In this document: piece by piece, positions 10,333 through 37,659 of the stretch | How positions within the stretch are numbered: the stretch's first letter is position 1 | Layout of the letters: the number at the start of each line of letters is the position of its first letter | NCBI GenBank assembly: GCA_035463475.1 | Contig: DATHTE010000123.1 | Location: forward strand, 91,775-155,774 | DNA: 64,000 nucleotides | Direction: 5' to 3' | Source: Vicinamibacterales bacterium | Lineage (GTDB): Bacteria > Acidobacteriota > Vicinamibacteria > Vicinamibacterales > 2-12-FULL-66-21 | Translations under genes and position numbers: made by a program | The notes under the pieces: generated by a model | The model's database searches: none | What the model was told of the DNA's origin: nothing | Seen by the model: only the letters and a program-made list of their open reading frames with translations

Positions 10333-12024
10333 CTAGAAATGGCCGAGCCGCGTGATGCCCTCGCCTTCGACGCAATCGTACGCGCTCCCGGAGCGAAGCG
10401 ACTTGTACTCCTCCGTCCTGCCGCTCGGCCAGATGAGATGCACGCGGTCCACGACGTCCTGCCGGCCGAGGCCGAAGGTGACCGGCAACTCTGACTGCGA
10501 CAGGTAACTCGATCCGCACTTCACCATCCGCGTCTGCGTCGTCCCACCGTGCTCAATCCTCACCGTCGCGCCGATGCCGTCCCGGTTGGACCGTGTTCCT
10601 CGCAGCCGGAACCGGATCGAACGTCGCGCTGACGGGTGATCCGCGCGGAACAGCTGCGCCGGTCCGTTGTTGGCGGTCAGCAGCAGGTCGAGGTCGCCGT
10701 CGCGATCGAAATCGCCGCACGCCAGGCCGCGGCCGACCTTCGGCGTGACGAAGGAGGCGCCGGCCGCTGCGGCGACGTCCTCGAAATGGCCGCCGCGGTT
10801 GAGGAACAGCTGCGGCGGCTGCGCGTAGCCGACCGGGCCGCGCATTTCGCGCAGCGGCTCGTCGATGTGCCCGTTCGCCACCACGAGGTCGAGCCTGCCG
10901 TCCAGGTCCATGTCGGCGAAGACGCACCCGAAGCCGAGCGTGTGTCGCGACGCCGTCCCGACGCCGGCCCGGATCGCGACATCTTCGAACCGGCCCGGCC
11001 GGACCTCACGGTACAGCCCCATCATCTCGTTCTCGAAATTCGTGATCGCCAGGCCGAAACGGCCGGAGTTGTCGAAGTCCCCAACGTCAACGCCCATTCC
11101 GGCCCGCGCCTTGCCGTCGGCGCTGAAGGCCACGCCCGCGTCGAGCGCCACGTCGCGGAAGGTCCCGTTGCGCAGGTTGCGATACAGCTTGTTCGGCTGC
11201 GTGTCGTTCGCGACCAGGAGGTCGGGCCAGCCGTCGACGTCGTAGTCGAACATCGCGACGCCGAGCGACTTCGAGCTGGTGTCGAAGATCCCGCTCGTCG
11301 CGGTGACGTCCTCGAACGTGCCGTCGCCGCGGTTGCGGAACAGCCAGCACGTATCGCCGCGGTACGCTTCGGGTGTGCAGTAGGACTTGCGCTGGCCGTT
11401 CGCGCTGCAGAAGACGTCGTGCTCGGGCGACCACTTCACGTAATTACAGACGAAGAGGTCGAGCCGCCCGTCACGGTCGTAGTCGAACCACAGCGCCGAC
11501 GTGCTGAGGGCGTGCCGTCCGCCGAGCCCGCTCCGCTCGGTCACCTCCACGAAGGTGCCACGTCCGGTGTTGCGGAAGAGGCGGTTCTGGCCGACGCACG
11601 TGATCAGCAGATCGGGAAAACCGTCGTTGTCGTAGTCGGCTGCGGCGACGCCGAGCCCGTACGTTTCCACGTCGAGGCCGGCGCGCCGTGTCACGTCCGT
11701 GAACGTGCCGTTGCGATTGTTGTGAAACAGCCGCGGGGTCGATCGTCGCCGCTTGTGCCCCGGCCAGTCGCATCCGTTCACGAGGAGGATGTCCGTCCAG
11801 CCGTCGGCGTCGTAATCGATGAACGCGCATCCGGAGCCGAGCGTTTCGGGCAGCAGCTTTCCGCCGTATGCCCCGTTGTTGTGGCGGAACGGCACGTGGG
11901 CTCTCGCCGTGACATCGACGAGGCGCACGCCCGGCTCGGCGGGCTGCGAAGCGGCCGCGGGAGGGCGGATCGCGCCGGCAAGGCCCGCCGCCCCCATCGC
12001 CCGGATGAACTCGCGCCGGTTCAT
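10333..12024 (-). CDS. CRTAC1-family protein (FG-GAP/VCBS repeats + ASPIC/UnbV C-terminal domain), Tat signal
   Basis: MNRREFIRAMGAAGLAGA (twin-arginine signal). Repeated DYDxDGxxDL..xN.....L[FY]RN.G.GTFxDV units. C-terminal NRDGIGATVRIEHGG...SSYLSQSELPVTFGLG...IWPSG. Confidence 0.9.
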   Translation of the reverse strand: MNRREFIRAMGAAGLAGAIRPPAAASQPAEPGVRLVDVTARAHVPFRHNNGAYGGKLLPETLGSGCAFIDYDADGWTDILLVNGCDWPGHKRRRSTPRLFHNNRNGTFTDVTRRAGLDVETYGLGVAAADYDNDGFPDLLITCVGQNRLFRNTGRGTFVEVTERSGLGGRHALSTSALWFDYDRDGRLDLFVCNYVKWSPEHDVFCSANGQRKSYCTPEAYRGDTCWLFRNRGDGTFEDVTATSGIFDTSSKSLGVAMFDYDVDGWPDLLVANDTQPNKLYRNLRNGTFRDVALDAGVAFSADGKARAGMGVDVGDFDNSGRFGLAITNFENEMMGLYREVRPGRFEDVAIRAGVGTASRHTLGFGCVFADMDLDGRLDLVVANGHIDEPLREMRGPVGYAQPPQLFLNRGGHFEDVAAAAGASFVTPKVGRGLACGDFDRDGDLDLLLTANNGPAQLFRADHPSARRSIRFRLRGTRSNRDGIGATVRIEHGGTTQTRMVKCGSSYLSQSELPVTFGLGRQDVVDRVHLIWPSGRTEEYKSLRSGSAYDCVEGEGITRLGHF

Positions 12025-12653
12025 CGGAGGTGGACGAGCCCGGACTGGATCGCGTACACCACCAGTTCAGCAGTCTTGTGGACGTCGAGCGCGTTCATGA
12101 TGTTGGCGCGGTGGACGGCGATTGTGTTCACGCTCAACGACAGGCGCGCGCCGATCTCCCGGTTGGAGAGCCCCTGGCAGATCAGCTCCAGCACCTGGAG
12201 CTCGCGCGCGGTCAGGGTGCGGGATCGGTCCCCCTTCCTGGGCGTGTCGGGGACGCTGAGTCCCGGGTCGAGAACCTGCTCCCCCGAGGCGACCTTCCGC
12301 ACCGCCGCGGGCAGATCCAGGTCGAGCGCGCTCTTCAGGATGTACCCGCGGGCGCCCGCGTCGAGCGCCTGCCGGACGAGCGTGCTCTCCGCGTGCATGC
12401 TCAGGATCAGGACGGCGATCCCGGGTGAGGCCGCGAGAATCTGGCGCATCGCCACCAGCCCGTTCACGCCGGGCATCGCGCAATCCATCACCACGACGCG
12501 GGGGGCGAGGCTGGCGGCCAGCGGCACCGCCTCGTCGCCGGTGCTCGCCTCGCCAACGACGACGATCCCGGGGTCATCTTCCAGGAGGCGGCGAAACCCG
12601 CGGCGGACGAGAACGTGATCGTCAACGAGAAGAACGGTAATCGCTTCGGTCAT
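12021..12653 (-). CDS. NarL/FixJ-family response regulator (REC + LuxR-type HTH)
   Basis: ATG at 12653. VLLVDDHVLVRRG...VVVMDCAMPGVNG (phospho-acceptor Asp region) and LTARELQVLELICQGLSNREIGARLSLSVNTIAVHRANIM (LuxR HTH). ATGA overlaps at both ends (12650-12653 and 12021-12024). Confidence 0.95.
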   Translation of the reverse strand: MTEAITVLLVDDHVLVRRGFRRLLEDDPGIVVVGEASTGDEAVPLAASLAPRVVVMDCAMPGVNGLVAMRQILAASPGIAVLILSMHAESTLVRQALDAGARGYILKSALDLDLPAAVRKVASGEQVLDPGLSVPDTPRKGDRSRTLTARELQVLELICQGLSNREIGARLSLSVNTIAVHRANIMNALDVHKTAELVVYAIQSGLVHLR

Positions 12654-13987
12654 ACCCCTTGTGCGTTGGCCGGGACGCGTAGCCGGACCAGCGTGCCGCC
12701 CCCGGGCGGTGTCGCGAACTCGATTGTGCCGCCGACCAGCTCGGCGCGCTCGCGCATCGACACCATGCCGAGGCCGCGCCGATCGGGCGAACCGTTCAGA
12801 CCGGCCCCGTGGTCCTCGACGTCCAGCTCGAGGGTGCCGTTGACGGCGCGGAGGCGCACCGCCGCCTCTGCCGCGCCAGAGTGGTGCGCCACGTTGCGCA
12901 ACGCCTCCTGGAGGATGCGGTACACGTGGATGCCGGTTTCCTTCTGGACGCGCACGGGAGGTCCCGACCTCTCGAACGAGACCGTGATGCCAAGCTGGCG
13001 CTTCACGTTCGACATATACCACTCGACCGCCTCGTCCAGCCCCGCGTCGTCGAGAATCGAGGGGTGCAGGGCCTGCGAGAGACTGCGCACGTGGTCCAGC
13101 GTGGTCTGCGCGATCTCGGAGACCTCCCGCAGCTCGGCGCGCAAAGGGGACGCCTCGGGCGCGTGATTGCCGGCACGCCGCAGCATTGAACCCATCGCGG
13201 TGAGCATCTGCCCGAACTCGTCGTGCAGCTCGCGCGCGAGGGCGCGCAAGGTGGCTTCCCGGGCCGCAATGAGCTGCTGCGCGAGCTCGCGCCGCCGCTC
13301 CGACAGCGTTCCGATCTCCGCGAACAGTCGGCGGTTGGCGCGAATGACCGAGGCACTGGCCAGGATGATCGCCACCAGCGTGGCGCCCAGGAATAGGTAC
13401 ACCTGTCGCTGGACGTCGCTGTAGATGCCCTGCACCTGGAGCGCCATCTGCTGCTCGCTCTCGTTGTTCTCGACGAGAAGGCGGGCCACGGTGGTGGCAA
13501 GCGCCGCCTGTCGCGCAACGAGGGACAGCCGGATCTGCGCGCGAGCCTCGTCCTCTTGGCCGTCTCGCGCCATCGCGAACATGCGATCCACGGCGTCCCA
13601 GAACTGCGTCACCGAGTTGCCCAGGAACTCGCGCTGGCCGGGGCTTCGGCGGTGCATCGCCAGCGCTTCCTCGCGTCGCAGCGCGTCAGCCAGGTCCAGC
13701 CGGATGCGGTCGAGCTGCGAGCTCCACGCCGTGAGCGGGTATCGCCCCTCGGTGTCGATCATGTCGCGCATCGCAAGCGCAAGGAGGTTCAGGTTGTTCT
13801 GGATGCGCAGCAACTGGAGCGAGTCCTTGCGGCTTCGCTCGGCGAAATCGGTCTGGAGCGCCCGCAGCCGGGCGATCTGCTCCGTGATGTACCACGAGTA
13901 GGCCAACACGGCAGCAAGCGTGATGAGTAGCCCGATGACGAGCCCGATTGTCGGCGAGCGGCCATGCCCGCGCGATGGTGCCTCCAT
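12650..13987 (-). CDS. Sensor histidine kinase (periplasmic helical sensor, HisKA_3 + HATPase_c; NarX/DegS type)
   Basis: Two TM helices flank a roughly 160-aa helical sensor. ELHDEFGQMLTAM is the H-box of HisKA_3. LQEALRNVAHHSGA (N box), DHGAGL and GLGMVSMRERAELVGG (G boxes). Confidence 0.9.
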   Translation of the reverse strand: MEAPSRGHGRSPTIGLVIGLLITLAAVLAYSWYITEQIARLRALQTDFAERSRKDSLQLLRIQNNLNLLALAMRDMIDTEGRYPLTAWSSQLDRIRLDLADALRREEALAMHRRSPGQREFLGNSVTQFWDAVDRMFAMARDGQEDEARAQIRLSLVARQAALATTVARLLVENNESEQQMALQVQGIYSDVQRQVYLFLGATLVAIILASASVIRANRRLFAEIGTLSERRRELAQQLIAAREATLRALARELHDEFGQMLTAMGSMLRRAGNHAPEASPLRAELREVSEIAQTTLDHVRSLSQALHPSILDDAGLDEAVEWYMSNVKRQLGITVSFERSGPPVRVQKETGIHVYRILQEALRNVAHHSGAAEAAVRLRAVNGTLELDVEDHGAGLNGSPDRRGLGMVSMRERAELVGGTIEFATPPGGGTLVRLRVPANAQGV

Positions 13988-13989
13988 AA

Positions 13990-14031
13990 TTGATCGCCCG
14001 CAGGTTGATCGCCCGCAGGGGCACCTATACT
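13990..14031. promoter_or_regulatory. Perfect 15-bp tandem direct repeat (TTGATCGCCCGCAGG x2) plus a TATACT box, in a 54-bp divergent intergenic region
   Basis: 13990-14004 and 14005-14019 are identical. TATACT lies at 14026-14031, 10 nt before the KS ATG (14042). The region lies between the kinase start (13987, minus) and the KS operon start. Confidence 0.6.
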
Positions 14032-14041
14032 ATTCCGGCTC

Positions 14042-15262
14042 ATGGATGCACGTCCACGCGTCGTGATCACGGGAATCGGGGTCGTCACCTCGATTGGCAC
14101 CGGCGTCGGGCCGTTCTGGCAGGCGCTTCTCGCCGGCTCGTGCGGCATCGGCCCGGTCGCTTCGTTCGACACGACCCGGCACGCCGCGCACATCGGCGGG
14201 GAGGTGAAGGGCTTCGATCCCTCGAAGTTCCTTCGGCGCCTCGCGCCCACGTCAATGGGGCGTGCGTCCCAGATGGCAATCGCGGCGGCGCGGCTTGCCC
14301 TCGAGGACGCCGGCTTCGCCAATGGGGGCCCGTATCCCGCGGGAATCGGGGTCTCGCTCGGGACGACGTCGGGCGAGCCCACCCTGATCGAGCGGTTCAA
14401 CGAACTGGAGGTCGCCGGGACACGCGAGGCGATCGGCGCGGAGTTCATCGAAAAATATCCGTGTCATACGATCGCGGCGCACGTGGCGTCCGAACTCAGC
14501 TTCACCGGACCCAACCTCGTCATTCCCACGGCCTGTGCCGCGGGAAACTACGCCCTCGCCTTCGCCTCCGACGCCATCCGCGCCGGAACGGTGGACGTGA
14601 TGCTTGCCGGCGGCTCCGACTGCTTCTCCCGGATCACATACACTGGCTTCTCGCGACTGGGCGCGATCGCGCCGGAACGCTGCCAGCCGTTCGACCGGAA
14701 CCGGAAGGGGATGGTGCCCGGCGAGGGGGCGGCGGTGCTGGTGCTGGAGCGGTTCGACCGGGCCGTCGCGCGAGGGGCGCGGATCTATGCGGAGCTGGCC
14801 GGCTACGGGCTGACGTGCGACGCGAACCACATGACCGCGCCGCAGGGGGACGGCGCCGTCCGCGCGATGCAGCTGGCGATGGCGGATGCGGGCGTCGAGC
14901 CTCACGAGGTCAGCTACATCAGCGCTCACGGGACCGGAACGGCCGTGAACGACCGCGTCGAGACGGCGGCGGTCAAGCAGGCGTTCGGTGGCGCGGCGCC
15001 GCACGTGCCAATAAGCTCCATCAAGTCCATGCTCGGGCACACGATGGGGGCCGCGTCGGCCATCGAAGCGGCGGCGTGCGTCCTCGCGGTGTACGATGGG
15101 ATGTTGCCGCCGACGATCAACTACGAAACGCCGGATCCCCAGTGTGACCTCGACTACGTTCCCAACGAGGCGCGGCGTCAACCGGTGGACGTCGCCATGA
15201 ACAACGCCTACGCGTTCGGGGGGAACAACGCCTCGGTGATTGTGCGAGCGTGCCGGCCGTGA
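14042..15262 (+). CDS. Beta-ketoacyl-ACP synthase (KAS II / FabF-like) with intact Cys-His-His triad
   Basis: VVITGIGVVTSIG; GPNLVIPTACAAGNYA (active-site Cys); YISAHGTGTAVND (His); SIKSMLGHTMGAAS (His); NAYAFGGNNASVIV. Confidence 0.95.
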   Translation: MDARPRVVITGIGVVTSIGTGVGPFWQALLAGSCGIGPVASFDTTRHAAHIGGEVKGFDPSKFLRRLAPTSMGRASQMAIAAARLALEDAGFANGGPYPAGIGVSLGTTSGEPTLIERFNELEVAGTREAIGAEFIEKYPCHTIAAHVASELSFTGPNLVIPTACAAGNYALAFASDAIRAGTVDVMLAGGSDCFSRITYTGFSRLGAIAPERCQPFDRNRKGMVPGEGAAVLVLERFDRAVARGARIYAELAGYGLTCDANHMTAPQGDGAVRAMQLAMADAGVEPHEVSYISAHGTGTAVNDRVETAAVKQAFGGAAPHVPISSIKSMLGHTMGAASAIEAAACVLAVYDGMLPPTINYETPDPQCDLDYVPNEARRQPVDVAMNNAYAFGGNNASVIVRACRP

Positions 15263-19634: not shown

Positions 19635-19895
19635 ATTCCGCCGGGGTCTTTAGGGGGAATTCCGGCGAGCTTCGCCTTCAGTCATCCGCCGGGAAAGGTA
19701 TCCGCGAGCACTGGTTTCGCCTTACCGCCGGGTTGGTACGGGCGAGGACTTGGCTTCGCCGTTCCGCAAGGGGTGGGCATCGCCGAGGAATGGCGCCGGC
19801 TTCGGGTATTCCGCGGGTCAGGTCCCGGCGAGTCTGGCGTCGCCTCCGGCATTCCCAGGGGTTCGGAATTTGTTTCGGCATTCGGCATTCGGCAT
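19635..19895. repeat. Array of about 5 degenerate 39-48-bp tandem repeats ending in (TCGGCAT)x3, in an intra-operon spacer
   Basis: Units start at 19638, 19686, 19725, 19764 and 19811. Each has the pattern CCGCCGGG - N6-15 - (C/T)CGGCGAG - N1-12 - TTCGCC(T/G). A tandem TCGGCAT heptamer x3 lies at about 19875-19895. GC3 of the overlapping ORF is poor. Confidence 0.55.
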
Positions 19896-19913
19896 TAACA
19901 AGGAGTCAGTAGT

Positions 19914-37358: not shown

Positions 37359-37659
37359 GCAATTGATAGTCGGGTGATCGGGTAATCGCACGATCGGCAA
37401 TTGGAAATCGGGGAATCGGGTAGTTGGATCGGGTCATCGGGTCATCGGGTCATCGGGTCATCGGTCATCGGTCATCGGGCCATCGGGGGCCATCGGGTCA
37501 TCGGGCAGCGGAGAATCCTGCGTCGGGCGAATCGGCCAAGAGCGGCGCGCGTCCACGATTACGTGCTTACTCGATCACCAGATTACCAATCCAACCACCC
37601 GATTCCCCGATTGCCGATTGCCGATCGTGCCATTACCCGATTTCCCGATTGTCAATTCG
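37359..37659. repeat. Roughly 300-bp imperfect palindrome: roughly 80-bp inverted arms made of 7-8-nt ATCGG(G) units, flanking a (GGTCATC)n microsatellite
   Basis: The left arm (about 37359-37437) and the revcomp of the right arm (about 37577-37659) match at about 85% by eye, e.g. ATCGGGTAAT.GCACGATCGGCAAT.GG.AATCGGGGAATCGGGT.GTTGGAT. The centre (37431-37505) is tandem TCATCGG(G) repeated about 9 times. It lies between convergent genes. Confidence 0.7.

Follow-up and report, generated by a model that had tools for sequence, protein, structure and literature searches.

The start codons of a two-component system and of a lipid operon face each other, in the genome of an uncultured soil acidobacterium, across a spacer of 54 bp which hosts a 15-bp unit repeated twice in tandem. 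The locus raises the question whether the repeat is the binding site of the adjacent response regulator, as proposed in an initial annotation, or has a different origin. The source genome is a 5.6-Mb draft from the order Vicinamibacterales (Acidobacteriota). Coordinates below refer to the window, the stretch of 64,000 nucleotides analysed here.

A repeat working as regulator-binding site would have opened the control of an undescribed lipid pathway to analysis, and the evidence speaks against favouring this reading. The repeat is best explained, with a probability of roughly two in three, as a young species-specific tandem duplication, located between the kinase start codon and the TATACTA box of a minimal divergent promoter, and not as the operator of the regulator. 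The coordinates given in the initial annotation, the idea of a -10 box serving a near-leaderless mRNA and, on the ground of conservation, the link between two-component system and lipid operon are retained; the operator idea is not. The main gain is a conserved architecture, in which one TATACTA box forms the core of a short divergent spacer, the mRNA of the first lipid gene is predicted to be near-leaderless, and a probable -35 element lies in two rare codons of the same gene. To our knowledge, there are almost no promoter data for Vicinamibacterales, and we know of no transcription start site (TSS) data for this organism or its phylum; the architecture provides a concrete, testable promoter model for the order.

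Genes flanking the repeat

The gene at the left side of the spacer (12650..13987, minus strand) encodes a histidine kinase with HisKA_3 and HATPase_c domains (Pfam) and two predicted membrane segments, at residues ~9-35 and ~192-218. Its start codon is aligned with the starts of the orthologues. The next gene (12021..12653, minus strand) overlaps the kinase stop by 4 nt, and its domain content (Response_reg and GerE; Pfam) bears out its identification as a NarL/LuxR-type response regulator. The minus strand of the interval 10333-13987 encodes the kinase, the regulator and an FG-GAP/ASPIC(UnbV) protein, with 4-nt overlaps at each junction (12650-12653 and 12021-12024), and the three genes look like one translationally coupled operon. 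At the right side, a beta-ketoacyl synthase gene (KS; 14042..15262, plus strand; Pfam) opens the lipid operon, and is followed by genes for a KS-like partner, a protein with HMG-CoA-reductase fold, a FAD oxidoreductase and an acyltransferase (Pfam). The 54-bp divergent gap was confirmed, the kinase ATG being at 13987 (minus strand) and the KS ATG at 14042 (plus strand).

Two alternative frames were rejected. A kinase reading frame extended upstream, which would carry a peptide repeat, would need a start codon after the TAG at 14030-14032, and there is none before the ATG at 13987; it is also contradicted by the orthologues, which begin at the aligned ATG. The plus-strand open frame 13990-15147 was regarded as spurious, an overlapping frame such as high GC content produces.

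A 324-nt contig from a sediment RNA-Seq run (X18) is identical to part of the kinase gene (window 13084-13407). That sample contains the source species, or a very close strain, and the match may reflect expression of the kinase or DNA carry-over. No 5' ends were found in metatranscriptomes; the kinase and KS sequences in X18 and in a further run (X19) are all gene-internal.

Structure and distribution of the repeat

Two copies of the unit TTGATCGCCCGCAGG lie head-to-tail at 13990-14004 and 14005-14019. Both the sequence read and Tandem Repeats Finder (period 15, 2.0 copies, 100% match, 13990-14019) bear out the perfect repeat. In the interval 13985-14044 the order is cat-AA-TTGATCGCCCGCAGG-TTGATCGCCCGCAGG-GGCACC-TATACTA-TTCCGGCTC-ATG. 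Copy 1 (13990..14004, plus strand) is KS-distal and lies 2 nt from the kinase start codon. Copy 2 (14005..14019, plus strand) opens with TTGATC (14005-14010), which matches the -35 consensus at 4/6 positions and is 15 bp from TATACT. By our own arithmetic, a perfect 15+15 repeat is expected by chance, at 68% GC, at ~6e-9 per position, or ~4e-4 per window, and the repeat is therefore regarded as the product of a duplication event rather than a coincidence.

The source genome is a metagenome-assembled draft in 144 contigs, with a depth of ~9x at the locus, and the repeat might in principle have been created by assembly or sequencing. However, an independent assembler gives the same repeat from run X1, which is probably the source sample of the genome: a Logan contig from this run spans 13500-14497 with zero gaps. 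Contigs of unassembled length (151 nt) from the soil metagenomes of two other studies (X5 and X9) cover 13919-14086 and span both copies, intact and identical also there. Over this interval the X9 contig has 0 gaps, and the only base missing from the X5 contig is one A at 13988. X5 and X9 otherwise differ from the window by single-base changes only, all outside the repeat. The presence of both copies in X1, X5 and X9 implies that the repeat is neither an assembler artefact nor a mutation of a single clone, and a technical origin can be set aside for practical purposes. The survey of copy number listed 17 DNA runs; the site was covered in X1, X5 and X9, and nine further runs gave no coverage. 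Alleles with one or three copies were not seen in the three covering samples, all of which have two.

The 15-mer is unique to this locus. The genome search suggested with the initial annotation found 0 other exact copies of TTGATCGCCCGCAGG in the 5.6 Mb, and the 15-mer is thus not a common genome-wide repeat. Sites with one mismatch are 7, all singles; sites with up to 2 mismatches are 88, all within long open frames and none paired. Lack of further exact copies, and the location of unpaired near copies in open frames, give no sign of a regulon. Within the window, matches with 3 mismatches are not enriched (9, including the two true copies, vs 5.0 +/- 2.3 expected).

Orthologous spacers

Searches with the KS protein found relatives in Vicinamibacterales/Acidobacteriota metagenome-assembled genomes (MAGs) from soil. 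The 17 records fetched correspond to 16 distinct loci, L108 and L109 being identical, and the divergent synteny of kinase-regulator and KS genes kept in these loci backs the association of the two-component system with the lipid operon already proposed. KS identity to the orthologues ranges from 75 to 86%; the KS of L055 aligns only partly, at 57%.

The comparison of spacers weighs most in the interpretation of the repeat. Twelve orthologous kinase/KS spacers are compact, measuring 31-37 bp vs 54 bp here. All share the same layout: kinase start codon (cat), 16-22 nt (17 in 9/12), TATACTA, 8-9 nt, KS ATG. In the window, 38 nt separate the kinase start codon from TATACTA, vs the 17 usual in relatives. 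Neither a tandem repeat nor the 15-mer was found in any of the orthologous spacers (0/12), and the duplication is missing from all orthologous loci of other genera. Apart from TATACTA, the 12 spacers share no motif, and the 17-nt stretch is unconserved. In the alignment with the closest orthologue (L044 in genome G014, KS 86% identical), a gap of 21 nt falls exactly at the repeat.

The sole other genome of the same genus (G001) is without the whole cluster, and contains only FabF-like paralogues (45% identity). There is hence no genus-level comparator, and the age of the duplication is only loosely bounded. The KS/lipid cluster is absent from G001 as from G003, G005 and G007, three further members of the family, the best matches being FabF-like (42-45%), and thus occurs only patchily within the family.

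A conserved TATACTA box, possibly serving both directions

The TATACT box was confirmed by sequence at 14026-14031. With the following A, it makes a conserved TATACTA (14026..14032) which can be read on both strands, as TATACT for the KS operon (plus) and as TAGTAT for the kinase operon (minus), and which would work as -10 region. TATACTA is kept, 8-12 nt ahead of the KS ATG, in 16/16 loci of the TATACTA type examined. In the 15 tabulated loci, 9-10 nt separate the last T of TATACT from the KS ATG; the remaining one (L104), with 12 nt between TATACTA and ATG, was left out of the tabulation. In TATACTA-type loci no Shine-Dalgarno sequence was found between TATACTA and the KS ATG, where the 8-9 nt vary from locus to locus and are not rich in purines.

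The predicted KS transcription start falls at ~14038, with the start codon at 14042-14044 (14038..14044, plus strand), and would leave a leader of ~4 nt with no Shine-Dalgarno. Spacing across the TATACTA-type loci suggests a KS mRNA leader of ~2-4 nt. The proposed role of TATACT, as -10 of a KS mRNA nearly without leader, is supported, as far as sequence can tell, by the conserved position of the box and the missing Shine-Dalgarno. Leaderless and near-leaderless mRNAs with a TANNNT box just ahead of the start codon have been described for Actinobacteria and Deinococcus. The arrangement here, with a conserved TATACT at 9-10 nt from the KS start codon and no Shine-Dalgarno, resembles these mRNAs. 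In contrast to them, the spacing observed here suggests a 2-4-nt leader, and not a start at the A of the ATG.

Bidirectional sigma-70 promoters feature the motif TANNNTA, in which positions 2 and 6 of the opposed -10 elements are base-paired, and start transcription at sites 18 bp apart (Warman, Grainger et al., bioRxiv 10.1101/2020.01.31.928960; NAR 2026, PMC12825309). TATACTA obeys the TANNNTA rule, as TATACT and TAGTAT hexamers overlap, with positions 2 and 6 paired, which suggests that one -10 region may serve both directions. Assuming 7 nt from -10 to start, starts are predicted at ~14038 (plus) and ~14020 (minus), again 18 bp apart. The locus thus resembles the promoters described by Warman, Grainger et al. 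in having a 7-bp TANNNTA with a -10 on each strand and divergent starts at the same predicted distance, and, as in most of them, the element would drive two mRNAs. The arrangement, with a regulator gene at one side and its likely target operon at the other, also resembles acrR/acrAB and soxR/soxS. There are differences, too. In the relatives the spacer measures only 31-37 bp, and the flanking parts of the promoter consequently sit within both ORFs; at the present locus the kinase side has gained 15 bp by duplication, and the TSSs are predictions from sequence. TATACTA, last A included, is found also at loci without divergent kinase (L021/L101, L104). Its conservation in L021 and L104 means that bidirectional use is not proven.

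A simple sigma-70 promoter scan, admitting spacers of 16-18 bp only, reported no promoter at the locus. Our own counts agree with this result, matches being 8/12 in the reverse direction and the spacer out of range in the forward direction. A search for forward -35 elements found no -35-like hexamer at 15-18 bp in orthologues, and TTGATC at 15 bp here.

A candidate -35 for the kinase lies within the KS gene. KS codons 4-5 (Arg-Pro) are CGTCCA (14051..14056), the reverse complement of which, TGGACG on the minus strand, is separated from TAGTAT by 18 bp here and, in most relatives, by 17 bp. CGT CCA was found in 15/15 TATACTA-type loci encoding Arg-Pro at KS codons 4-5 (L021-L135), and both codons are rare in the source genome, where CGT accounts for 6.5% of Arg codons and CCA for 5.0% of Pro codons. 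TGGACG is a plausible -35 of the kinase promoter embedded in the KS ORF. Alternatively, A/T-ending codons near a start may serve translation; L021 keeps CGT CCA despite lacking a divergent kinase.

A second promoter type precedes the same operon in four more distant loci (L022, L112, L069 and L141). In place of the near-leaderless TATACTA architecture, these have TACAAT or TAGAAT 24-31 nt ahead of the KS start codon, with a C-rich leader (CCCTCC/CCTCAC) behind it. None of the 4 loci has CGT CCA (0/4).

The predicted kinase leader

With a start 7 nt downstream of TAGTAT, the kinase mRNA would have a 5' leader of ~33 nt (13988..14020, minus strand), made almost wholly by the two repeat copies, vs ~12 nt in orthologues. 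A hairpin is predicted at its 5' end, in which GCGGG of copy 1 pairs with CCUGC of copy 2, and both copies are needed for it. The leader folds at -14.2 kcal/mol; the value is not exceptional (z = -1.74), 12/200 shuffled sequences folding equally well. Pairing with the anti-Shine-Dalgarno sequence is predicted at -9.4 kcal/mol, vs -0.3 to -3.7 kcal/mol for orthologous leaders, on the assumption of a canonical tail. A search of Rfam found nothing relevant.

Origin and possible roles of the repeat

Replication slippage would be the probable source of the duplication. The two copies are 100% identical, also in X5 and X9, which fits a recent event. Some 30 further perfect tandem duplications, with units no shorter than 15 bp, occur in the genome, while ~0.03 per unit length are expected by chance, and events of this kind thus appear as a routine mutational product in this genome. 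Identical adjacent copies, absence from orthologous sites and comparable events elsewhere are all as found in slipped-strand tandem duplications. Unlike these, polymorphism in copy number was not seen in the three samples, and the unit is longer than the repeats typical of contingency loci. Comparison of the sequences places the duplication after the genus-level splits and before the three sampled strains diverged. The repeat could also be seen as the footprint of an excised insertion sequence, with retained target-site duplication. For a target duplication of an insertion sequence 15 bp is unusually long, and evidence for such an origin was not found.

If TATACTA provides overlapping -10 elements, with TATACT driving the KS operon (leader of ~4 nt) and TAGTAT the kinase operon, both copies would be transcribed as part of the kinase 5' leader and would precede the KS -10, lengthening the kinase leader from ~12 to ~33 nt and leaving spacing inside either core promoter unaltered. 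The duplication would most likely be neutral or mildly modulatory, with little or no function.

In the initial annotation the repeat was read as a tandem operator for the adjoining NarL/LuxR-type regulator, or another tandem-binding factor. In the version considered here, the site would have been gained in this species, and the two-component system would act through it on the lipid operon as well as on its own genes. In favour of this reading, the repeat separates the start of the operon encoding the regulator from that of the lipid operon, the kinase-regulator/KS synteny is conserved, and two copies are found in all three covering samples. A precedent exists within the NarL/LuxR family. Members of the family commonly bind inverted repeats (e.g. 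7-2-7) as face-to-face dimers, and ComA is the documented case of binding to a direct repeat, TTGCGG-N5-TTGCGG, with a period of 11 bp (PMC4797271). As in the ComA site, the repeat here is head-to-tail, each unit opens with a TTG-type hexamer (TTGATC), and a gene for a NarL-family regulator is adjacent. The likeness ends there. The period is 15 and not 11 bp, which corresponds to ~1.4 helical turns, out of helical phase (~11 bp), and sets the sites on nearly opposite faces of the helix. All 15 nt are identical, and not a hexamer with a free spacer in between; identity at 15/15 positions is the signature of a duplication, and selection on a recognition element of 6-7 bp needs less. An accompanying inverted repeat, conservation in orthologous promoters and other genomic sites are all missing here: inverted repeats of at least 8 bp, the norm in the family, were not detected in the interval 13900-14120, and the genome has no further sites.

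The helix-turn-helix (HTH) segment of the regulator (…SVNTIAVHRANIMNALDVHKTAELVVYAI…) is almost invariant among the five complete orthologues aligned, to which L055 (truncated) and L044 (which loses alignment before the HTH) do not belong. DNA specificity, and hence the operator, are therefore expected to be conserved, but the orthologous spacers share nothing with the 15-mer. A new gain in this species would be compatible with the absence of the site from relatives. A real operator would have to overlap the core promoter or sit in the starts of the ORFs. Absence from orthologous spacers, lack of a regulon, the 15-bp period and the missing inverted repeats together disfavour the regulator-site reading, which we consider improbable.

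A role exerted in cis, with no dedicated factor, is a somewhat better candidate, although still an unlikely one. The duplication would be an adaptive change shifting the balance of the two transcripts, and could act by providing the KS promoter with a -35-like hexamer of the TTGA type, or by endowing the kinase mRNA with a longer leader bearing a 5'-terminal hairpin, or with more room for ribosome loading. TTGATC at 15 bp from TATACT, in a position where orthologues have no such hexamer, fits the former route; the hairpin which requires both copies, and the pairing with the assumed anti-Shine-Dalgarno tail, better than in orthologous leaders, fit the latter. The constant presence of two copies in the covering samples suits an adaptive change, and is compatible also with positive selection. 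Yet the spacer of 15 bp falls short of the optimum, and no promoter was called by the scan; moreover, a single copy would place the proximal TTGATC at the same distance, and the duplication consequently adds nothing to the KS core promoter. On the kinase side, the stability of the hairpin is matched by shuffled sequences, and the anti-Shine-Dalgarno tail was not taken from the source genome. Hairpin, TTGATC and anti-Shine-Dalgarno pairing are weak hints of a cis effect.

More speculatively, and with odds somewhat longer than those of the operator, the 15-mer array might be a tuning element, which biases RNA polymerase between two mutually exclusive orientations, either through copy number or through recruitment of the phosphorylated regulator in a kinase-proximal position. 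If so, it would set the ratio between the transcripts of the sensor system and of the lipid operon, and represent a species-specific rewiring of a short promoter frozen throughout the order.

Other observations

In L044, the regulator orthologue of G014 (~1000-1200) loses alignment just before the HTH, after …CEGLSNR. The break looks like a frameshift, or an indel error of long-read sequencing, in that MAG.

Tandem arrays of 7- and 8-nt units (CAGAGGC/CCTCTGG, TTCGGCA, ATCGGGTC and similar) are spread throughout the source genome. They were found in contigs C13, C15, C28, C34, C81, C84, C124, C134 and others, as in the window at 37370-37650 and 19874-19896. Several are located at contig ends, and probably break the assembly. 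In a related genome (L004 in G004), arrays of the GGTTCCT type reside directly upstream of the kinase orthologue.
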